Below are positions 8,537 to 62,793 of a stretch of DNA of 64,000 nt, one piece after another. The first letter of the stretch is position 1, and each line of letters begins with the position of its first letter. The notes under the pieces were generated by a model. That model searched no databases. It saw only the letters and a program-made list of their open reading frames with translations, and was not told the origin of the DNA. The position numbers and the translations under genes are program-made. The DNA lies in sequence record OR999189.1. One strand, given 5' to 3'. The DNA is from Enterobacteria phage P922.

Positions 8537-10516
8537 TTAACCTGCAAGACCAGTTAACTCATCGAAATCTGCACCAGTAGCAGTTGCGACGAAATTCAAA
8601 GTAATATAATTTATACTGCGCGCCGGTTGGATGTAGAATGTTGCAACAAACTCATTTCTATCAATTACTGACGGAGTGTTATTTGTTGTATCGCAAACTA
8701 CACGATATTCATAAATTCCACCGAGAGCTTTAATTCCCTGTAAGTATTGGGCAGTTTCTGTGCGGAATGATGAACGAGTAAACGCGTTGTTTAATTCGAA
8801 CAAACGATATTTTGAACTACGTCCGATATTCGTTTTCAACATATTAAACAGACGACGAACGTTAATACGATCAAATGGAGAAGGAACAGAAGTAGCTGTT
8901 TTATCACCATACAATACGTAACCATCACCACCTGTGCCAGTTACTGGGTTGATAGCTTCTTGGTATAAACGGTCGCGCTGAGCTTGGCGAGTTTCAATAG
9001 CAAGTTTAATAACGTTAAGAATCTGGCCGCGATTATAACCAGCTGGAGACATCCAAGTCTGAGAAACGTTATCGGTTCTTGCACATAAACCGGCAATATC
9101 AGCTGCTAATGGAACCCAGCGATTGACATCATTATATTTGTCATACTGATATTTGTAGTTACCATCAATTGCTGCGTAGGTTGAACTGATATTAAAGTTA
9201 TTATCAGTGTATGAACCTGTTGCAGTTCTCCAATTGACTAAGTTATCAACAGCGCGAGTTACAGGAATTCCAACTACAGTTTCGCGCGGTGGTGAGCACA
9301 ATACTAAGCAATCCTGGCGAGCATCCCCAATTGAAACGACGTGTTTTTGGACAGTAGATGCTGTTTCTAAAGATTCACCGGCACAAGAACCCGCAATAAA
9401 CAACTGAACGTCAACAGATTCACGGTCAGCAAAGAAGTCCCAGGCTTCCATTAAATCTCCTGCTGTTACTTCAGCATTTGATGATAATCCACCAGACAGA
9501 GTTAAAATTCCAGAGAATCCTTCTGGCCAGTTTTGTGCAGTTGCGAAAATATATTCTGAACCGCCTTTTGCGAAAAAGTCATCAATGTAGATGTTACTAT
9601 CGTAAATATCTTTTTCACCACGCTTTGTTGAAAGAACAATACTTTGAACAATAGCATCATTACGACGAACTATAATAGCGTATTGCGAATCAGTTTGTGG
9701 TCCATATCCAAAAACTGCCTTGGCAGTAGATGCGCGTGTTCCGCCACCTGGATAAATTGGAAGTAATGCAGAAGCACCTTTTGCGTAGTCAGCTTTAGAT
9801 ACGATTTCAATTTCGATTTTATCGCCCAACTCGCCCGGATAAAGAGCTACTACTCCTGGAATTCCATATTTTTCGAGATTTGCCTGAAAGTCAACCGCTG
9901 TCATAGCAGCTTCAGCATTTTCAATCTCAGCTAATAAAATACCGGAATCAGTAATAATTTTTCCAAGAGTTATTACTGCAGCTAAACCAGATGAAGACGA
10001 AGAAATTTCCGCGGTCCAGTTAGAACCTAATGCTGGATATTCACCGACTTCTTTCGCTTTAGCGATAATTTTTGCGGTAGGAATACTAATTTTCTTAATT
10101 TTTCCATCAGCATCTACTTCGGTAATTTTACCTTCCGTTTCAATGTCTTCTGAAACATACTTAACTGTGATTTTATCTCCAACCGCGTAGTTACTACCTG
10201 GAGTAGAAATAGTGTATTCAATATTACCAGCAATCGGAGATGAGTTTTTAGCGGTATCTCTATCGACAGCACGCACAACTCGCAAATCATTTCCATATTG
10301 TAAGAAATTCATTGCAGACATAAAATAGTCAGCAGTTTCAGCTGTAGGTTGACCAAAAGTATTAACTAAATCTACTTCATTTGTAACCTGTTTGATCTGA
10401 AAAGCAGGACCCCACTGGAATTTACCGGCCAAAGCTGCTGTACCAGTAGAGTTATTAACCACGGTGCTTTGAACCGTAGTTTCTTTGAGCTCAATGCCCG
10501 GAGATAATAAAGTCAT
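8537..10516 (-). CDS. 18: tail sheath protein gp18
   Basis: 659 aa, N-terminus MTLLSPGIELKETTV; length equals T4 gp18. Confidence 0.95.
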   Translation of the reverse strand: MTLLSPGIELKETTVQSTVVNNSTGTAALAGKFQWGPAFQIKQVTNEVDLVNTFGQPTAETADYFMSAMNFLQYGNDLRVVRAVDRDTAKNSSPIAGNIEYTISTPGSNYAVGDKITVKYVSEDIETEGKITEVDADGKIKKISIPTAKIIAKAKEVGEYPALGSNWTAEISSSSSGLAAVITLGKIITDSGILLAEIENAEAAMTAVDFQANLEKYGIPGVVALYPGELGDKIEIEIVSKADYAKGASALLPIYPGGGTRASTAKAVFGYGPQTDSQYAIIVRRNDAIVQSIVLSTKRGEKDIYDSNIYIDDFFAKGGSEYIFATAQNWPEGFSGILTLSGGLSSNAEVTAGDLMEAWDFFADRESVDVQLFIAGSCAGESLETASTVQKHVVSIGDARQDCLVLCSPPRETVVGIPVTRAVDNLVNWRTATGSYTDNNFNISSTYAAIDGNYKYQYDKYNDVNRWVPLAADIAGLCARTDNVSQTWMSPAGYNRGQILNVIKLAIETRQAQRDRLYQEAINPVTGTGGDGYVLYGDKTATSVPSPFDRINVRRLFNMLKTNIGRSSKYRLFELNNAFTRSSFRTETAQYLQGIKALGGIYEYRVVCDTTNNTPSVIDRNEFVATFYIQPARSINYITLNFVATATGADFDELTGLAG

Positions 10517-15459: not shown

Positions 15460-16926
<1,467 letters not shown>

Positions 16927-18477
16927 TTAGTAATGAACTTTAATAATATAGTTTAATGATATATTCCATGGTCTAGTTTCATAACCAATTAATCCTTCAC
17001 GATTAAGTGTACCATGAGCATCTCTCGGTCCACCTAATTCAAATCCATCATTAGTGAAGTATGAAGCATTATCCCAGTCGGAATATTTTCTAGTTCCAAG
17101 ATATCCTTGATAAACTGACGCGCCAAATGGGCCTTCACTTCTGTTATATTCCCCCCAACCACCGGCGTGTTTATGGTATGACATTTGTTGTGCCTGAACA
17201 CCACCAACATGCATTCCGTCACATCCTACGCCCAGTCTATCCTTTCCATAGCCATCTTGTCCACGTTGATTTAAAATATGACCGCCTGTGCCGGCTCCTC
17301 TGACGAAAAGACCTCGCATATCAGGAATACCAGGATTATTCCAATCACCACCAAATCTTGTTCCAACTACGTTTCTATAATCAGGAAATTGGTCACCTGA
17401 CACGGTTCCACCGTGACACATAGACCAACCTGGAGGTGCTGAATCACCTGCAAACATCATAATAGTCCCAACTGGAATTCTTTCGGACGCATATCTTTCA
17501 GTGGCAACAGGTTGATCGCCATTTTTCCACATTCCGCCGCGTGACCAAATTCCGTTTGCTGTAAGATGGTCTAAATTTAAAGAACCATTAATAGTTTGTC
17601 CACCACGAGTATTAATTACATCTGCGTTCCATGCTAATGCACCAGAGCTATCACCTTCAGGGGCAATACCGGCTTGCGTCGTTAATTTAACTACTCCACG
17701 CATAGAACCAGTAGCTCCTCGACCATTTAGTGTTTCACCTGTTACTGCAACACCCCCTAAATTATTATTAATTTCAGTCTGTGTTCCTAAACGTATAACA
17801 CCCCTATATTCATCTGTTGCAACAGAATTCATAAAGGTATATGGGGAAATTGCATATCCTTCGCGGAGAGTTCCTTGACGAGTTTGCGCAACAGTAGATA
17901 ATTGAACTACTCCTCTCACCGATTCTGTTGCAGTGTCTTCTGACGGAGCTATTTGTGAAATTAATTTTATTGCAAGTTTTTGGGTTTTTAATGGAGTCAT
18001 TGCCGTAGTATCATCTACGCCGGCCAAAGCTGCAGGTGTAGATGATATTTTAATAACCCCGTTTGATGACTCAGACGAATATCTATTTTGGAACACATCG
18101 TCAGTATGGTATTTCAGTTTTTGCGGAGTTATTGATGAATTATTATCTGAGCCTTCTAACGTTTCTTCATTTGTTGAATAACGCGTTAAACCATATTTAG
18201 TTTCAGTAGCATTTGGGTATAATAACCTTGTTGCTAATGTAGCTGGCGTAACGATTTTAGAATTATTAGTTCCATCTAAAACCTCTTGTTCTGACGCAAT
18301 CATTGCTATTCCTTTAACTTCCATAGTTGCATCAGGAATACCATTTACGCCGATATTACTTATTTTTGATAATGCAGACTGCACTGTCGTAACAGTGTTA
18401 GGAAAATTCGATCCTACTGGATCGAATTTAACATATTTTGATTCATTTGATACGTGCTGATATGTATTGTTACTCAT
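16927..18477 (-). CDS. 12: short tail fiber protein gp12
   Basis: 516 aa, Gly-rich fibrous protein; position between wac and 11. Confidence 0.85.
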
Positions 18478-51810: not shown

Positions 51811-52368
51811 GTGAGTGAGTCGAAGAGAATCAATATGAAACGATTAGTACTAGAAGTTAGTTCACTTTTTGGTGAATTGGCTATAGAAAAAGTAAATAAT
51901 ATGTATCGTTTGACGCAAGAAGACGATATGCTATATTTTACGCCTAGCGAAATTATTCATTTAACCCAAATTGAAAAACCTTACACTGATAAAATTGTAA
52001 GCATTAATGATGAGCATAAAATTCATTTCTATTCTTTATGCCCAGGATTTAACATTGAAAGCGAGTCAATATGCTTATCAATTAATAATTGGGATAATTT
52101 TATAACTAAAATTAAATATTTTTATTATTCTAACGAAAGAAAACATGGTTTAAAATGGTTTAAAAATTGCAATGCTATTATTACTAACGATTGCAATCAG
52201 AATGATGAAACTCTTTTAAATGTATCAAAATGTTATGAAGAGGGAGATGTCTTAACTATTCGTCAAATTGATGATTTTCGATCACATATTGTCACATTTA
52301 CCAAAGACGAAGCTATTGCGCTAAAGACTTATCTTGATTCTGTCATTCCAACTATGATTTCAAAGTGA
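51811..52368 (+). CDS. hypothetical protein, paralog pair member 1
   Basis: 185 aa, GTG start after GGAG RBS; C-terminus SKDEAIALKTYLDSVIPTMISK resembles the next ORF. Confidence 0.5.
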   Translation: MSESKRINMKRLVLEVSSLFGELAIEKVNNMYRLTQEDDMLYFTPSEIIHLTQIEKPYTDKIVSINDEHKIHFYSLCPGFNIESESICLSINNWDNFITKIKYFYYSNERKHGLKWFKNCNAIITNDCNQNDETLLNVSKCYEEGDVLTIRQIDDFRSHIVTFTKDEAIALKTYLDSVIPTMISK

Positions 52369-52374
52369 GGAAAT

Positions 52375-52896
52375 ATGTTTATTTCAAGTGAAAGCGGTTT
52401 AATTCGTGTTGAATTTAAAAATGACATCTTCCTTATTCAAGGAGATGATATTATTAAAATGAGTTATGACGAAATCAAGAAAATTTGTCATATTCTTGAA
52501 AGTCGTGGAAAAGGAAATGCTACTATCGATATAGGTGATTTATGGGTGACACTTTATGAAGTATCCGAAGGATTTAACATTGAAGATGAAAACAACATCT
52601 TAGCTATTGATAAAAGAAGTGATTTGTTTGATGTGTTAAAAGTTTATGAACAGTCAAACGGTGGAAGAAAAGCTGCATTGATTTATCAAAAACCACATTC
52701 ATGTGGAACTGCTTCAATCATTTCAAATATTGAAGATGAAACTGATACTTATATGTGTGTTTTAAAAGCTGGTGGTGACCGTCATCCGGATTTTATTTCT
52801 ATTCGTCAAAACAATGGAGAAATTTCATTATCAAAATCAGAAGCTGAAGCTATGATTAAGTATTTAACAACTGTTACACCTTCAATGAAAGGATAA
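52375..52896 (+). CDS. hypothetical protein, paralog pair member 2
   Basis: 173 aa; C-terminus SKSEAEAMIKYLTTVTPSMKG parallels the upstream ORF. Confidence 0.5.
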   Translation: MFISSESGLIRVEFKNDIFLIQGDDIIKMSYDEIKKICHILESRGKGNATIDIGDLWVTLYEVSEGFNIEDENNILAIDKRSDLFDVLKVYEQSNGGRKAALIYQKPHSCGTASIISNIEDETDTYMCVLKAGGDRHPDFISIRQNNGEISLSKSEAEAMIKYLTTVTPSMKG

Positions 52897-56399: not shown

Positions 56400-56927
56400 A
56401 TGAACGCTAAAGATATTTTCAACCTGGTAAATTACAACGATGGTAAATTTAAATCTGAAGCGCAAAGCAAGTTCTTTAACGACATCTCAATCGGAGGTGA
56501 AATCACTGTTGATGGAGGACAAATTTACAAATCCCGTTGGAATTGGATCGTTATTATTGATGAGATCGGTATTGTAGAAATTTACAAGAATACGAATAAA
56601 AATCGTACATTACACTGGTCTCGTGATACTAACGAACAGTACAAAAAGGATAAAGCATCTAAAATGTCTCGTGTAACTCAAGAAGATATTGAGTTCATCA
56701 AGAAAGATATTTTAATGTATGATAACTTAATTGCTGAAGAGCAAGCTGTTATTGATAAATTTGACGAGATTAAAGCTTCTCGTGAAATTCCTGATTTTAT
56801 GAAAGAATCAGTAAATGAACGATACTCTCTCATTTCAGAGCGTATTGAAACTTACAAAAAGCAAAGAGCTGAACGCCAAAATACTCTTCGGAAGTTTGAA
56901 GAACGGTTAAAGACGGTACTCGCATAA
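56400..56927 (+). CDS. hypothetical protein with C-terminal coiled coil
   Basis: 175-aa ORF with GGAGG RBS and early promoter upstream. Confidence 0.5.
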   Translation: MNAKDIFNLVNYNDGKFKSEAQSKFFNDISIGGEITVDGGQIYKSRWNWIVIIDEIGIVEIYKNTNKNRTLHWSRDTNEQYKKDKASKMSRVTQEDIEFIKKDILMYDNLIAEEQAVIDKFDEIKASREIPDFMKESVNERYSLISERIETYKKQRAERQNTLRKFEERLKTVLA

Positions 56928-56982
56928 CCGCTTTATACCAAGGATGGTATAATGGTTCTAAGCCCTTTTAATTGAGATTATT

Positions 56983-57397: not shown

Positions 57398-58288
57398 ATG
57401 TCAGTAGTAATTAATAATGTCAATGCAGTAATTAAATCTTTAGTTAATAAAAAAATGATGAATGAATGGACTGTACTTCGTCGTGGAGAGCCAGATAAAT
57501 TTTTTCATAGATTTAACCCAACTTTGGATTTGAATGTTATTGATAAAGATGTTCATGCCGAAATTTTAGATAAGTTTAAAGTTGATATTGGATTTGGATT
57601 AGAAAAACATTTGCAGCGAACAAGCGGATCTGGAATGAGTTTATCTAATCGCATTATGAAAGCCCTTAATAAAATTGGAGCATTGTCTCGTATTAACGCG
57701 AGTGAAATCCTTCGTAATTATAATAAAGGATATGACCTTTATGGTCGACTGATGCCAAAATTATCATTCGATCAAATGATAGCGGATTTGTGGGAAAATC
57801 AAAGACGATTATTAGCATTAGGCGCTCGATTAGCTAAAGGTTTAGATAAACAAATGATTTTTAAGACCAATAATACAGAAGACCTTAAATGCTTTAAATT
57901 TAGTATTCGTGGAGATGATTATTACATCAGAGCTCACTCTACAGATTATGCTAATATGGGGCATCATCTCTGTTTAGCTTTTGAAGTTTTAAAAGAAGCT
58001 GGAACATTAGAATATACGTCTGGTGCTAAATGCCCTATTGGTTCAAGTTGTATTTTAATTTATCGCCCGGATGAATCCAGTTCAACTAAATTGCCTACAA
58101 AACCTGTACCGGTTCGTAGTAACGAAAAACATTCTGAACAAATTGATTATTTTAATAAGCAGATTGAAGAGCTGAATATTTCTATTCAACAATATGATGA
58201 TGAAATTTTCAGACTATCTGGATTGAGTAGTAAAGCTAAATCTGAGCGTGAAAAGTTAATTAAAATTGTTGATTTACTTAAATCTTAA
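57398..58288 (+). CDS. hypothetical protein, paralog A of a four-member coiled-coil-tailed family
   Basis: First ATG after GAGGAAAA RBS (MSVVINNVNAV); about 296 aa; C-terminal coiled coil of about 45 aa. Confidence 0.55.
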   Translation: MSVVINNVNAVIKSLVNKKMMNEWTVLRRGEPDKFFHRFNPTLDLNVIDKDVHAEILDKFKVDIGFGLEKHLQRTSGSGMSLSNRIMKALNKIGALSRINASEILRNYNKGYDLYGRLMPKLSFDQMIADLWENQRRLLALGARLAKGLDKQMIFKTNNTEDLKCFKFSIRGDDYYIRAHSTDYANMGHHLCLAFEVLKEAGTLEYTSGAKCPIGSSCILIYRPDESSSTKLPTKPVPVRSNEKHSEQIDYFNKQIEELNISIQQYDDEIFRLSGLSSKAKSEREKLIKIVDLLKS

Positions 58289-58296
58289 GGAACACC

Positions 58297-59325
58297 ATGA
58301 AAACTCGTTCTCAAATTGAAGATATGGTTCGTAATGCCAGTTATACTCGTGATGTTATGACATTTTTGTGTGAAAATAATTTAGACCCTGATAAAGTTAA
58401 TCGTGTTATTCATCACTTTAAGTATACGAATAGCAGTGAATGGGTGCGTAATTTTAGTAAAGCGGGATATATTACACAAATGACTGCTCGTGAGCAACTC
58501 ACCGATTTCTGTAAAACTATTGATTATAAAAATCCTTTATTTGTTCAAGGCGTTGGTCAAAGTAAGGTCGATTTATCATCTGGATTTTTCAATCCAAATC
58601 ATTATCGTATTGAATGGAGATTTATTGCTCTGTTCCGTAGACAATTAAAGCAAATTTTATCAACTGCGAGTCGATTAAAAGGTTCTGATATTAACTTAAA
58701 GAACCTGAAATTTGATGGTTATACTCTTCAGATGGAAGTAAGACCATTAAAAGAAAATAATAGAACTGCACGAATTAGCTTTAAACCTAATACAAAAAAT
58801 TCTCTTTCAATTTGCGAATGCCTTAAATCGCAGTTGACAGAAGCATTTAAGTATATGGATGTTGTTGCCGCTGTTCAGTCTAAGATTTTACCTCATTTTG
58901 AGCGAAATTGGGAACATACAACAACGTATGAACTTGATATGATCGTTTCATTTAAATACGATTTTTTGAGAAAGGACGAAGTCACGCAAGAGAAAAAGCA
59001 AGAAGTGCAAGATAACTTAAATTTAAATTTATCTAATTACTCATCAAACGATCCTAAATTTTGGATGTATAGTTCAGGTAATAAGGATGCATGGAAATTC
59101 AATAAAGTGAATTTTCTTCCTGTTGAAAATCCGAGTCTTAAACCTGTTGAAAAATGGCATGCAGATGCGATTGAGAAGTCTATCAAGGCAGTAGATGATG
59201 AACTCGTTAAAGCAACTAATGAAGTGCTAGAAGCTGAAAAGATGCTAGAAAAAGCTCAAGAAAAAGTCAAAAATCTTACGAAGCAACGTTCTAAACTGAA
59301 CAATGCACTAAATGCACTAAACTAG
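58297..59325 (+). CDS. hypothetical protein, paralog B
   Basis: 342 aa; N-terminus MKTRSQIED; C-terminal coiled coil (ELVKATNEVLEAEKMLEKAQEKVKNLTKQRSKLNNALNALN). Confidence 0.55.
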   Translation: MKTRSQIEDMVRNASYTRDVMTFLCENNLDPDKVNRVIHHFKYTNSSEWVRNFSKAGYITQMTAREQLTDFCKTIDYKNPLFVQGVGQSKVDLSSGFFNPNHYRIEWRFIALFRRQLKQILSTASRLKGSDINLKNLKFDGYTLQMEVRPLKENNRTARISFKPNTKNSLSICECLKSQLTEAFKYMDVVAAVQSKILPHFERNWEHTTTYELDMIVSFKYDFLRKDEVTQEKKQEVQDNLNLNLSNYSSNDPKFWMYSSGNKDAWKFNKVNFLPVENPSLKPVEKWHADAIEKSIKAVDDELVKATNEVLEAEKMLEKAQEKVKNLTKQRSKLNNALNALN

Positions 59326-59354
59326 TTTACTTTGCCACAAGGATGTGGTATAAT
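59325..59354 (+). promoter_or_regulatory. early promoter inside the four-paralog cluster (before paralog C)
   Basis: GTTTAC at 59325, TGGTATAAT ending at 59354. Confidence 0.5.
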
Positions 59355-59382
59355 GTTCTTACTTTCTACTGAGGAGATTAAT

Positions 59383-60384
59383 ATGACTCGTAACGAATAT
59401 ATCAAATCATTCAATAGCGTTATTGATGATAAAGTTAAACCTATGTCTAGTCAGAATAGTGTTCTTTCTATTATCAATCAATGGCTCAATAATATTGATG
59501 TAAGCATTGTTTCTTCCAACAGATTTATTCACGAAGTTCGTGAAATTTCTAGTCGTACAGATAAAGATGACATTAAGAAAACCTTTAAAGGGTCTCGTCT
59601 TCTTTCATACTTAGTCAACAGAGATATTCTTGGTAAATTTGGGAAAGAAATTAAACGAACTAAAGATGTAGTAGGATATAATTGGTTCGGTGATGTTAAT
59701 TCTTATCATCTTAATAATAAAGAAGACCCTGAGAATATTTTTACTCGTCGTTGGATTAGTAATTTCAGACTTTTCAAAGGACAAATTCTAAAATCAGCTT
59801 CTAAATTATGTTATGGCGATTATCGTCAAATTCATCCTTTGGCTTCTGATATGATTATCGTAAAAGAATATGAACTTGATAAAAATAAAGTAGCTATTTT
59901 TGTGAATTATGGATTTTTTACACCAGACGCTAACCAAAAGAATATTAATAAATTTTTCTCAATTGCTAGCACTATAACTTATCAATTAGAGGCGGCTTTG
60001 GGCTGTATGGAAACCGTAAAAAGTATTCATACTTATCCTTTTAAAAATATGTGCGGTTGGGAAGGATATAAAATTATAATTAGCCTCCGTGAAGTGAAAC
60101 GTACGTACTCACCGACTGATAAAGAAATTTACCAACAAAAATGTGATGAAATTGTGAATACTCCTAAAGAAGAAACTACCCTTGAAGAACTAATGGAATG
60201 TCTTGACGATTCGCCTGAACCGATAGAAATTCGTCCAGAAGTTATTGCACTAGAAAAAGCTTATAAAGAAGTTCTAGAAATTTCTAATAAAGCGCAGAAA
60301 GATTATGAGAAGGCTAAAAGGATTTGGGAAGAATCTGTTAATCGCCTTGATCGTTTGGAACAAGCTTTACAGTTAATTAAGTAA
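59383..60384 (+). CDS. hypothetical protein, paralog C
   Basis: First ATG after GAGGAG RBS (track start is TTG); 333 aa; C-terminal coiled coil. Confidence 0.55.
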   Translation: MTRNEYIKSFNSVIDDKVKPMSSQNSVLSIINQWLNNIDVSIVSSNRFIHEVREISSRTDKDDIKKTFKGSRLLSYLVNRDILGKFGKEIKRTKDVVGYNWFGDVNSYHLNNKEDPENIFTRRWISNFRLFKGQILKSASKLCYGDYRQIHPLASDMIIVKEYELDKNKVAIFVNYGFFTPDANQKNINKFFSIASTITYQLEAALGCMETVKSIHTYPFKNMCGWEGYKIIISLREVKRTYSPTDKEIYQQKCDEIVNTPKEETTLEELMECLDDSPEPIEIRPEVIALEKAYKEVLEISNKAQKDYEKAKRIWEESVNRLDRLEQALQLIK

Positions 60385-60436
60385 TTTAAAGCCAAGGATG
60401 GCTCGGAGTATAAATCATTAACCAAGTGAGAAGAAC

Positions 60437-61363
60437 ATGAAAACTCGTAAACATTATATTGATTATTTTGACAGTCTTATTACTAAACATCGTAATTATC
60501 AGATAGGACATAGAGCAGTAATCAATAATATTCTTCGTGATTTTTTAGACTATATTGGATGGGAAAACCATATTTGTAAAGATACACAAAATGCGTATTC
60601 ACATTCTCTTGGTTCTTTGCTAGAGTGGTTCAAACGTTCCCGATTACTATCTTCTGTGATAGCTGTTAATAATGTTAAAAAATTTATGTATCCAAGCTAC
60701 ATTGAGACTAATGTATCAAATGCTAATGTTGTTACATTTAATATTATTAATGACGTGAAAAGAACTTATTTAGAAGAATGGTTTTCTAAAAATAGTAAAG
60801 AAAAATTTGCTAGTGAGTTTTCACATGAATTTAATAATAATGTGAATATGCTTTTTAAGCATTCTCGTAGACTGTTTTGTCATGGCGATGACCGTACTAT
60901 TAATGTAAATGTAAAAGATTGGGTTACGGCTAAATTTATTCCATCATCACAGAATGGACCATTTGAATTGTCAATTATTGTTTGTGCTCCGCATGAAATA
61001 TATAAAAATCTTCCATATATGAAACCGCGTGAAGCTAATAAACATAATAAAACGATTCGTTCTTTGACTTATAATCTTCGTACGTTATTGTCTAAAATGG
61101 ACGTAGTTGAATCCTTTGATGATAATACGAATTATGGTCTTTCACTGTTTGAAACTAAAGTTGTTATTAAGTTAAAGGACCCTAGTAAATTTAAACCTAC
61201 ACCAAAGCCCAATCATGGGAATGATACTATGAAAGAAGAACGCGAATATCTCAGTGCCCGTTTGATTGAAGTTGAAAAACAGATTGAAGAGCATACTAAA
61301 GTTATTAAGGCTTTAACCGCCAAAGCAAATGGTTTACGTGATGCTATTGAGGTACTGAAATGA
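60437..61363 (+). CDS. hypothetical protein, paralog D
   Basis: 308 aa; N-terminus MKTRKHYIDY; C-terminal coiled coil ([42 protein letters not shown]). Confidence 0.55.
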   Translation: MKTRKHYIDYFDSLITKHRNYQIGHRAVINNILRDFLDYIGWENHICKDTQNAYSHSLGSLLEWFKRSRLLSSVIAVNNVKKFMYPSYIETNVSNANVVTFNIINDVKRTYLEEWFSKNSKEKFASEFSHEFNNNVNMLFKHSRRLFCHGDDRTINVNVKDWVTAKFIPSSQNGPFELSIIVCAPHEIYKNLPYMKPREANKHNKTIRSLTYNLRTLLSKMDVVESFDDNTNYGLSLFETKVVIKLKDPSKFKPTPKPNHGNDTMKEEREYLSARLIEVEKQIEEHTKVIKALTAKANGLRDAIEVLK

Positions 61364-61907: not shown

Positions 61908-62171
61908 ATGTTTAAAGTATATGGCTATGATAGCAACATCCACAAATGTGTGTATTGCGATAATGCAAAACGTCTTTTGACTGTGAAGAAACAGCCGTTT
62001 GAATTTATCAACATTATGCCGGAAAAAGGTGTTTTTGATGACGAGAAAATTGCTGAGCTTCTGACGAAACTAAGTCGTGATACTCAAATCGGATTGACGA
62101 TGCCACAAGTATTTGCTCCTGATGGAAGTCATATTGGTGGATTTGACCAATTGCGGGAATACTTTAAATGA
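61908..62171 (+). CDS. nrdC: glutaredoxin/thioredoxin NrdC
   Basis: 87 aa; active-site CVYC; sequence MFKVYGYDSNIHKCVYCDNAKRLL matches T4 NrdC from memory. Confidence 0.9.
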   Translation: MFKVYGYDSNIHKCVYCDNAKRLLTVKKQPFEFINIMPEKGVFDDEKIAELLTKLSRDTQIGLTMPQVFAPDGSHIGGFDQLREYFK

Positions 62172-62476
62172 TAGAATTAAATGAACAGACTATTTTTCTA
62201 GGCGATGGCACAGAAGACGAACTGGAATATAAACTATATGAATATATGGTTTGGTTAGCTAAAGCAGAAGGTATAGACTTTGTTGTGGCTAACCCGTATG
62301 GCGAGAACACGGTTGTAATCGGTGGTACTGCTTATGAAGTCCAATGGCAATACGTTGGGCTTGAATCTGAAGAATTTGAAGAAGATGAGCATGGTGATTG
62401 GCATCCAGTGGGTCCTTGGTATTGGGAAAACGGTGAACCTGATTTTGAAGTGTCGAGTTGGTGGTGTGATAAATGA
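62168..62476 (+). CDS. hypothetical acidic protein
   Basis: 102-aa ORF overlapping the nrdC stop. Confidence 0.45.
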   Translation: MIELNEQTIFLGDGTEDELEYKLYEYMVWLAKAEGIDFVVANPYGENTVVIGGTAYEVQWQYVGLESEEFEEDEHGDWHPVGPWYWENGEPDFEVSSWWCDK

Positions 62477-62793
62477 CTATTGAAAATAAATTAGATGTTG
62501 ATGCAGTTCTGAGTGAAATCATTGAAGACCATGATGCATTTTCAGAAAATTATGATTTTGATTTTTCAGACTATCTTAAACCTGTCGAAATAGAAGACTG
62601 GGTACAAGATGGCAAATGTCAATATCGGCAGTGTGTTTATTTTAGCCCAAAACATAATGTACATGTTTCCGTAAATGAATGCCGTTCAGGTTCTTACCAT
62701 TCTGACTGGTATTATGCAGTTCCGACTGTTGAATTAGTCGAGCCCCGTGAACGTGTAGTAACTCAGACAATACGAGAATGGATTACGCTATAA
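62473..62793 (+). CDS. hypothetical protein
   Basis: 106-aa ORF; ATGA overlap with upstream gene. Confidence 0.45.
   Translation: MTIENKLDVDAVLSEIIEDHDAFSENYDFDFSDYLKPVEIEDWVQDGKCQYRQCVYFSPKHNVHVSVNECRSGSYHSDWYYAVPTVELVEPRERVVTQTIREWITL

Follow-up and report, generated by a model that had tools for sequence, protein, structure and literature searches.

Roughly half of the genes of bacteriophage T4, the most thoroughly studied of all phages, still have no assigned function. The question raised by positions 57398-61363 of Enterobacteria phage P922 (sequence record OR999189.1) is whether four consecutive genes of similar construction, the orthologs of T4 nrdC.6, nrdC.5, nrdC.4, and nrdC.3, belong to a single family and what their products do during infection. 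The window analyzed here is the whole 64,000-nucleotide (nt) stretch of this record in which the genes lie. On balance, we favor the interpretation that the cluster consists of non-essential early accessory genes whose products, NrdC.3 to NrdC.6, share one structural plan and act as counter-defense inhibitors of host immune proteins.

Identity of the cluster and the published activity of NrdC.5

Judged by its sequence, the window is Tequatrovirus DNA, and a 4.7-kb stretch of it shows 99.8% identity to the Escherichia phages EcNP1 and Nami and 94% DNA identity to T4. Four consecutive + strand open reading frames (ORFs) of 296-342 residues, as reported in a first-pass annotation made from the sequence alone, were confirmed by ORF calling at the same coordinates. 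That annotation equated them with T4 nrdC.4 to nrdC.7, which is off by one; synteny with and identity to T4T give nrdC.6 to nrdC.3, lying between nrdC.7 and nrdC.2. The strand is that of T4 early transcription. The genes are as follows.

57398-58288, + strand: nrdC.6 ortholog, 296 residues; 97% identity to NrdC.6 of T4T, with conserved synteny; PHROG 2257; precomputed Pfam PF26899
58297-59325, + strand: nrdC.5 ortholog, 342 residues; 95% identical to T4T; Pfam DUF7235/PF23882; PHROG 2351
59383-60384, + strand: nrdC.4 ortholog, 333 residues from the ATG behind a GAGGAG ribosome-binding site; 90% identical to T4T; PHROG 1435; precomputed Pfam PF26897
60437-61363, + strand: nrdC.3 ortholog, 308 residues; 96% identical to T4T; PHROG 1435

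The nrdC.5 product matched Pfam DUF7235 (PF23882) over its full length with 432.6 bits (E = 1.2e-129; gathering cut-off of 30 bits), and no match to this model was found for the nrdC.6, nrdC.4, or nrdC.3 proteins. Relative to T4, the window allele of nrdC.5 has 17 differing positions, several of which fall at residues 201-208 and in the C-terminal tail.

The evidence that carries a counter-defense role is published for T4. A T4 clone with deletions fails to plate on ECOR17 unless dsr1 is disrupted, cloned dsr1 protects MG1655 against that clone, and T4 nrdC.5 expressed by itself from a plasmid is sufficient for the deletion mutant to plate again in the presence of ECOR17 dsr1 (eLife 2022, by Srikant, Guegler & Laub; PMC9391042). 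Dsr1 has a SIR2 domain and is believed to act by NAD+ depletion (PMC9391042), and its sensor domain is reported to be homologous to that of Avs7, which recognizes phage major capsid proteins (PMC13581612, 2026). This evidence is genetic and concerns the T4 allele. The product of 58297-59325 is the ortholog of T4 NrdC.5, in the same position and with the same DUF7235 domain; nrdC.4 and nrdC.3 are probable distant homologs of it, and nrdC.6 is alike in architecture. The window allele would be expected to overcome Dsr1 as the 95%-identical T4 allele does. The earlier remark that these genes have no known function thus fails for nrdC.5 and stands for the other three, which are still mostly uncharacterized; a literature search found no later paper on nrdC.3, nrdC.4, nrdC.5, or nrdC.6 or on their Pfam families. 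Likewise, the earlier suggestion of host-specific inhibitors or anti-defense proteins has published support for nrdC.5, through its T4 allele, and the anti-Dsr1 activity of that gene makes nrdC.3, nrdC.4, and nrdC.6 good candidates for similar roles.

In the mechanism that we propose, the four proteins would be made early from conserved promoter cassettes and would share a plan that begins with N-terminal helices and runs through a conserved pair of helices, a β-hairpin/helix/β-hairpin core, and a flexible linker to an amphipathic C-terminal helix. They would oligomerize through this conserved tail, a coiled coil predicted from sequence, and the fast-changing body, made up of the N-terminal and β-sheet parts, would bind a host immune protein and neutralize it stoichiometrically. 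The target of NrdC.5 would be the SIR2-type NADase Dsr1, and the other three proteins would act on other systems or variants. Direct binding, oligomerization, and the anti-defense role of nrdC.3, nrdC.4, and nrdC.6 are steps that we infer. If nrdC.3, nrdC.4, and nrdC.6 are relatives of the anti-Dsr1 factor, they constitute three concrete candidate inhibitors of other defense systems. The variable-body, conserved-tail plan offers a testable model for the evolution of specificity and its swapping between phages, with a bearing on host-range prediction for therapeutic T4-like phages. Given that the genes were already annotated and the function of nrdC.5 already published, the present analysis contributes the family-level picture and the three candidates, an incremental extension of T4 biology and not a new kind of system.

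C-terminal tails and relationships among the four proteins

The C termini were assessed with a home-made heptad scan, in which segments of 35 residues were scored by the hydrophobic occupancy of the a and d positions minus strong hydrophobics elsewhere, with proline and glycine penalized. The best segment was C-terminal in all four proteins (scores of 0.64-0.88), ranking in the top 0.2-1.5% when all 35-residue segments of the window's + strand ORFs with 100 or more residues (n = 47) were pooled. The tails span 46-59 residues, each with one unbroken a/d register over 6-8 heptads, and 37-42% of their residues are charged. Together with the helices present in AlphaFold2 (AF2) models of nrdC.5 and nrdC.6, these data bear out the first-pass description of a heptad-rich C terminus in all four proteins. 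A low-confidence linker precedes the tail helix in both AF2 models.

58124-58285, + strand: nrdC.6 tail, residues 243-296; helical hairpin (243-272/278-295) in the AF2 model
59146-59322, + strand: nrdC.5 tail, residues 284-342; single 58-residue helix (284-341) in the AF2 model
60238-60381, + strand: nrdC.4 tail, residues 286-333; heptad scan and register
61223-61360, + strand: nrdC.3 tail, residues 263-308; heptad scan and register

The tail was more conserved than the body in all three families measured across genera, the respective identities to distant orthologs being 64% and 38% for nrdC.6, 30% and 20% for nrdC.5, and 61% and 45% for nrdC.4. Indeed, the nrdC.4 tail is almost unchanged among orthologs with 40% overall identity. 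A C-terminal pattern, L-x-x-[AI]-[LIV]-x-[LAV]-[LI]-[KN], which was defined post hoc, is present in all four proteins and in no other among the 78 + strand ORFs of the window. Comparison of an nrdC.5 profile with PDB sequences gave no match below E = 0.045; the weak matches lay mainly on the linker and tail, and of five sub-threshold matches, three were on the tail and involved SMC, EmrA, and keratin, all of them coiled-coil proteins.

A similar C terminus was seen outside the cluster. The product of nrdC.8 (56400-56927, 175 residues), two genes upstream, has a clean C-terminal heptad helix as well (score of 0.72-0.76), so that five coiled-coil-tailed proteins are encoded within 5 kb, with the membrane gene nrdC.7 as the sole interruption. 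The body of nrdC.8 showed no detectable profile similarity to the four cluster proteins.

With regard to the bodies, all-against-all BLASTP gave a single link, between nrdC.4 and nrdC.3 (E = 1.7e-6, 24.5% identity over 269 residues). Both of these proteins match PHROG 1435 over the full profile length (E = 3.3e-165 and 1e-100, respectively), and nrdC.5 and nrdC.6 belong to two other PHROGs. Family alignments were then built from related loci and the protein database and compared as profiles with hhalign; in body-only controls the tails were removed to guard against effects of coiled-coil composition, and reversed target sequences were used. The nrdC.4 and nrdC.3 profiles aligned end to end with 98% probability and a body-only score of 88-94, as against 13-16 for the reversed control. 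Body-only comparison of nrdC.5 with nrdC.4 gave probabilities of 18-56%, E values of 1e-4 to 1e-3, and scores of 31-38 (16-17 reversed) over 136-170 collinear columns; the signal between nrdC.5 and nrdC.3 was weak (13-22, compared with 11-13 reversed). Near their N termini, nrdC.3, nrdC.4, and nrdC.5 have the motif (K)TRxx(Y/I)I in common, and it is present even in the divergent forms of nrdC.5 from other genera. By sequence, nrdC.4 and nrdC.3 are certainly paralogs, and nrdC.5 is a probable distant paralog of the two.

A short helix-pair motif occurs at an equivalent position (residues 113-152) in all four proteins.

57797-57853, + strand: nrdC.6 helix-pair motif NQRRLLALGARLAKGLDKQ, residues 134-152; in and just after helices H124-133 and H135-145; the most conserved block of its family
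58633-58689, + strand: nrdC.5 helix-pair motif FRRQLKQILSTASRLKGSD, residues 113-131; in and just after helices H105-115 and H117-127; aligned with the nrdC.4 motif by hhalign
59764-59820, + strand: nrdC.4 helix-pair motif FRLFKGQILKSASKLCYGD, residues 128-146
60830-60892, + strand: nrdC.3 helix-pair motif FNNNVNMLFKHSRRLFCHGDD, residues 132-152

The product of Tegunavirus gp94, which occupies the position of the cluster in its own genome, carries a hybrid helix-pair motif, ESNRLIAQGARLCSGNDR, with the bridging motif GARLCSGNDR, and gives collinear matches to both nrdC.6 (E = 0.0015) and nrdC.4 (E = 0.029).

The AF2 monomer models of nrdC.5 and nrdC.6 (mean predicted local distance difference test scores, pLDDT, of 70.6 and 78.2, respectively) have the same order of elements with very similar spacing, namely N-terminal helices, helix pair, β-hairpin, helix, β-hairpin, linker, and tail. 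When the two models were compared with BFVD by Foldseek, three proteins were matched by both.

Pectobacterium PM2 A0A0A0PZG4: E = 1.9e-5 with the nrdC.5 model, 1.9e-7 with the nrdC.6 model
Acinetobacter Acj61 E5E4A2: E = 1.1e-5 with the nrdC.5 model, 3.1e-4 with the nrdC.6 model
Yersinia fHe-Yen9-01 gp111: E = 4.2e-5 with the nrdC.5 model, 1.2e-3 with the nrdC.6 model

These models suggest that nrdC.6 probably has the same architecture as, and a fold shared with, nrdC.5, and they make its paralogy with the other three plausible, although unproven. Foldseek matches of the nrdC.5 model to tail-completion and tail-terminator proteins (E of about 1e-2) were treated as noise.

At the DNA level, no long direct repeats indicative of recent duplication were found in the cluster. 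The sole direct repeat, of 19 nt (58290-58308 and 60430-60448, 89% identical), spans the ribosome-binding site and the start, ATGAAAACTCGT (MKTR), in both nrdC.5 and nrdC.3, and is the only DNA-level trace of the relationship between these two genes. The first-pass description of four paralogs with shared motifs is clearly correct for nrdC.4 and nrdC.3, borderline by hhalign for nrdC.5, and without sequence signal for nrdC.6, the co-positioned motif being common to all four.

Several observations weigh against the reading of NrdC.3 to NrdC.6 as one family of inhibitors. The hhalign probability for nrdC.5 and nrdC.4 depends on the alignment, ranging from 3.6% to 86%. Body-only scores of nrdC.6 against the other proteins (16-19) are indistinguishable from those of the reversed controls (14-19), and a link between nrdC.6 and nrdC.5 was not rescued by including AF2 secondary structure in the profiles, by global mode, or by a low mact setting. 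The confidence of the AF2 models is moderate, the template modeling (TM) scores to the shared BFVD matches are 0.30-0.49, and the nrdC.4 and nrdC.3 families are absent from the top BFVD matches of the nrdC.5 and nrdC.6 models. The nrdC.6 family has long, near-invariant polar motifs, NYNKGYDLYGR and NQRRLLALGARLAxGxDKQMxFKTN, which by their sequence would also fit an enzyme or a binder of a conserved partner and not a fast-evolving inhibitor. Finally, the effect of NrdC.5 on Dsr1 could be indirect.

The profile scores of nrdC.6 bear on an alternative that we regard as possible but rather unlikely, in which only three of the proteins are related, nrdC.6 has acquired its coiled-coil tail by convergence, and the four-paralog picture is an architectural coincidence. 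It would account for the failure of nrdC.6 in the profile comparisons, for the lack of the KTRxxYI N terminus in this protein, and for its much greater conservation between genera than that of nrdC.5 (about 47-50% as against 24-28% identity); the heptad tail of nrdC.8, carried on a different and shorter body, is also in keeping with it. Against it stand the matching order and spacing of secondary structure elements in nrdC.6 and nrdC.5, the three BFVD matches common to both models (E of 1e-3 to 1e-7), the equivalent placement of the helix-pair motif, the hybrid motif and dual collinear matches of Tegunavirus gp94, and the same form of the extreme C terminus in all four proteins, albeit by a pattern defined post hoc.

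That the proteins are instead enzymes or host-takeover factors, acting for example in NAD+ or nucleotide metabolism or in host-protein modification, with Dsr1 rescue as an indirect outcome, seems to us a good deal less probable still. The invariant polar blocks (N, Q, R, D, and K) of nrdC.6 across genera would suit such a role, as would the position of the cluster among genes of nucleotide metabolism (nrdC and nrdD) and the proposal that Dsr1 acts through NAD+ depletion (PMC9391042); phage pathways that restore NAD+ and so evade DSR1 are cited in a preprint (10.1101/2025.06.06.658234). However, no enzyme family or known fold was recovered for these proteins in Pfam, NCBIfam, PDB sequences, or PDB folds, and searches of NCBIfam and PADLOC gave sub-threshold matches only, mostly on the coiled-coil tails. 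Moreover, nrdC.5 has few, scattered invariant residues and an overall cross-genus identity of 20-28%, unlike a conserved active site, and conservation is highest in a coiled-coil tail, a feature commonly seen in binders and scaffolds. The label of thioredoxin-like redox protein, which several phage records carry on all seven genes from nrdC.7 to nrdC.1, was rejected as wholly improbable, given that none of the four proteins has a CxxC motif or a Pfam thioredoxin or glutaredoxin match at E ≤ 1 and that the secondary structure predicted in the nrdC.5 and nrdC.6 models is incompatible with a thioredoxin fold; it is most simply explained as a name propagated from the adjacent nrdC gene (61908-62171).

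Promoter cassettes and modular evolution of the cluster

The counter-defense reading places the four genes under early promoters, and an extra early promoter within the cluster had been noted at first pass. A consensus scan and sequence conservation upheld this and gave two internal elements in place of one, both of the promoter/stem-loop (PeSL) type; a third element lies upstream of nrdC.7.

59326-59354, + strand: PeSL-type early promoter upstream of nrdC.4; TTTACT-17-TATAAT with an upstream TG and spacer stem-loop GCCACAAGGATGTGGT; found by consensus scan
60385-60414, + strand: degenerate PeSL-like element upstream of nrdC.3; TTTAAA-18-TATAAA with hairpin GCCAAGGATGGC; partial agreement with the consensus
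56937-56953, + strand: conserved hairpin ACCAAGGATGGT overlapping TATAAT, upstream of nrdC.7/nrdC.6; hairpin and -10 box, with no canonical -35 at 17-nt spacing

For PeSLs of the T4/PST group, the consensus in the literature is TTTACW-N17-TAYWAT with a stem-loop (PMC4122927), and the element at 59326-59354 has every feature of it; the element is kept in the Tequatrovirus, Gaprivervirus, and Dhakavirus loci despite divergent flanks. The element at 60385-60414 escaped the promoter scan, as its -10 hexamer lacks the final T, whereas at the corresponding place Mosigvirus has a canonical TTTACA-17-TATAAT. All three family genes of Mosigvirus are individually preceded by a TTTAC...CCAAGGATGG...TATAAT cassette. 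The hairpin at 56937-56953 is part of a 45-nt element (56918-56960), CGCATAA(C/A)CGCTTTATACCAAGGATGGTATAATGGTTCT, which lies just 3′ of nrdC.8 and forms an 8-bp hairpin with TATAAT within its 3′ arm. This element is near-identical in Tequatrovirus, Gaprivervirus, and Dhakavirus, even though the proteins encoded on either side share only about 50% identity, and in Tequatrovirus nrdC.7 is inserted between it and nrdC.6. From its sequence, the hairpin is the predicted start of the transcription unit containing nrdC.6 and nrdC.5. The folding energies of the hairpins are not significant by themselves (z of -0.8 to -1.9), and support for them comes from sequence conservation.

These elements resemble the PeSL cassettes described in the hyperplastic regions of T4-type phages, in that variable accessory genes follow them and gene content differs at the junctions (Arbiol et al. 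2010, PMC2839356; Comeau et al. 2014, PMC4122927), and PeSLs have been proposed as mediators of modular accessory-gene shuffling (PMC4122927). They differ in the degenerate -10 box (TATAAA) upstream of nrdC.3 and in the want of a correctly spaced -35 upstream of nrdC.7; the nrdC genes are unmentioned in those papers (PMC2839356, PMC4122927). Gene content varied by genus as follows.

Tequatrovirus: nrdC.6, nrdC.5, nrdC.4, nrdC.3
Gaprivervirus and Dhakavirus: nrdC.6, nrdC.5, nrdC.4
Mosigvirus: nrdC.6, nrdC.5, nrdC.3
Tegunavirus: gp94 at the cluster site, and gp111 between nrdC.11 and nrdC.10

The modular acquisition suggested by the first-pass annotation is well supported by this genus-specific gene content, by the PeSL-type cassette before each module, and by the alleles of nrdC.3, which are mosaic, with identities of 90-100% over the first 60 residues, 75-88% in the tail, and 28-67% in between. 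These alleles fall into classes of at least 90% identity (n = 138 records), 60-80% identity (n = 358, with the examples listed sitting at 60-64%), and less than 60%, about 55%, identity (n = 156). Between genera, identity is 24-28% for nrdC.5, about 47-51% for nrdC.6, and 38-51% for nrdC.4. The occurrence of nrdC.3 without nrdC.4 in Mosigvirus, and of nrdC.4 without nrdC.3 in Gaprivervirus and Dhakavirus, suggests that the second.3/.4-type gene of Tequatrovirus may have come from cassette exchange and not from duplication in situ.

The genes had also been described as diversifying. Within Tequatrovirus, the pairwise gene-wide ratio of nonsynonymous to synonymous substitution rates (dN/dS) for intact copies, leaving out the frameshifted nrdC.4 of L008, was 0.06-0.33, which is above the values for nrdC and nrdC.10 (0.01-0.07) but still far below 1. 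Gene-wide positive selection was accordingly rejected; the cluster genes are constrained and functional, and their diversity arises mainly through the replacement of alleles and cassettes.

The families are very narrow, being confined to T4-like phages. A search of 1.84 billion representative proteins with a combined nrdC.4 and nrdC.3 profile (hmmsearch) returned 9 clusters, among which none was bacterial and none was nrdC.5 or nrdC.6. Members of the nrdC.5 and nrdC.6 families came from genomes of T-even-like phages or from phage-sized records, a few with bacterial labels, and the gp94 family was restricted to Yersinia phages akin to fHe-Yen9-01. Tandem arrangement is not the rule throughout, as gp111 lies between the nrdC.11 and nrdC.10 homologs. 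The genus-specific gene sets, the three nrdC.3 allele classes, and the narrowness of the families resemble the outcome of an arms race and favor the counter-defense reading. The fold searches also returned relatives of ∼300 residues in T4-like phages of Klebsiella, Erwinia, Pectobacterium, Serratia, Yersinia, Enterobacter, and Acinetobacter. A broader and more tentative proposal, which we think doubtful but worth stating, is that these relatives and nrdC.3 to nrdC.6 form a single, hitherto unrecognized and very fast-evolving Straboviridae superfamily of coiled-coil-tailed inhibitors of immune sensors, in which each paralog would be tuned to a different defense system, the tail would drive homo- or hetero-oligomerization or docking to a common partner, and specificities would be swapped between genera as PeSL cassettes.

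Comparison with known counter-defense systems and neighboring features

The proposed role of NrdC.5 has a functional analog in DSAD1 of an SPbeta-like phage, which is reported to counteract or modulate the SIR2 NADase DSR2 and to let infection proceed despite the defense sirtuin (PMC10973363, PMC11087589). The two are likened by these descriptions only, as an analogy, and DSAD1 differs from NrdC.5 in its target (DSR2), in its phage group, and in its Bacillus host. The cluster may also be compared with the dmd-tifA-adfA “anti-toxin-antitoxin island” and gp49.2 (PMC13096335), likewise small clusters of non-essential early genes, each of which neutralizes one host system and which are lost or amplified under selection. 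Those inhibitors are small and unrelated, whereas the cluster members are about 300 residues long with a common coiled-coil-tailed architecture.

A 106-residue ORF at 62473-62793, 1.1 kb downstream of the cluster, corresponds to T-even gp49.2, a published inhibitor of the OLD defense nuclease (PMC13096335, 2026), and the pin gene lies further downstream. With gp49.2 and pin nearby, the nrdC neighborhood looks like an anti-defense region. Taken together, the observations of the first-pass annotation were largely right and its interpretation partly so.

Immediately upstream of nrdC.6, nrdC.7 encodes a 135-residue membrane protein. No Rfam or tRNA matches were found across the cluster region, and minus-strand ORFs in the region did not exceed 57 residues. 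In addition to the thioredoxin names, one record gives one of the seven genes from nrdC.7 to nrdC.1 as “Mur ligase domain-containing protein,” while bacterial labels (Bacillus cereus, Enterococcus faecalis) stand on some database entries; these odd labels in phage and bacterial records look like annotation propagation or contamination.

The T4 RefSeq entry NC_000866.4 annotates nrdC.6 as 275 residues (52066-52893), compared with 296 residues in T4T (HM137666) and in the window. The RefSeq form appears to be without the last part of the coiled-coil tail, perhaps through a frameshift or a difference in annotation.

Rearranged or divergent forms of the cluster were seen in other phages. Mosigvirus O157 typing phage 3 (2863-5942) has nrdC.6-, nrdC.5-, and nrdC.3-type genes and no nrdC.4, and Yersinia phage fHe-Yen9-01 carries two genus-specific Tegunavirus relatives (9459-10337 and 16382-17323) with the same tail. 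One protein (P0138), found on three contigs, one of them of 167 kb, is a chimera that joins nrdC.5 residues 146-274 to nrdC.3-type residues 134-308, with nrdC.4 deleted. Another (P0141), from Shigella phage Sf25, is an nrdC.6 in which residues 177-259 are internally duplicated.

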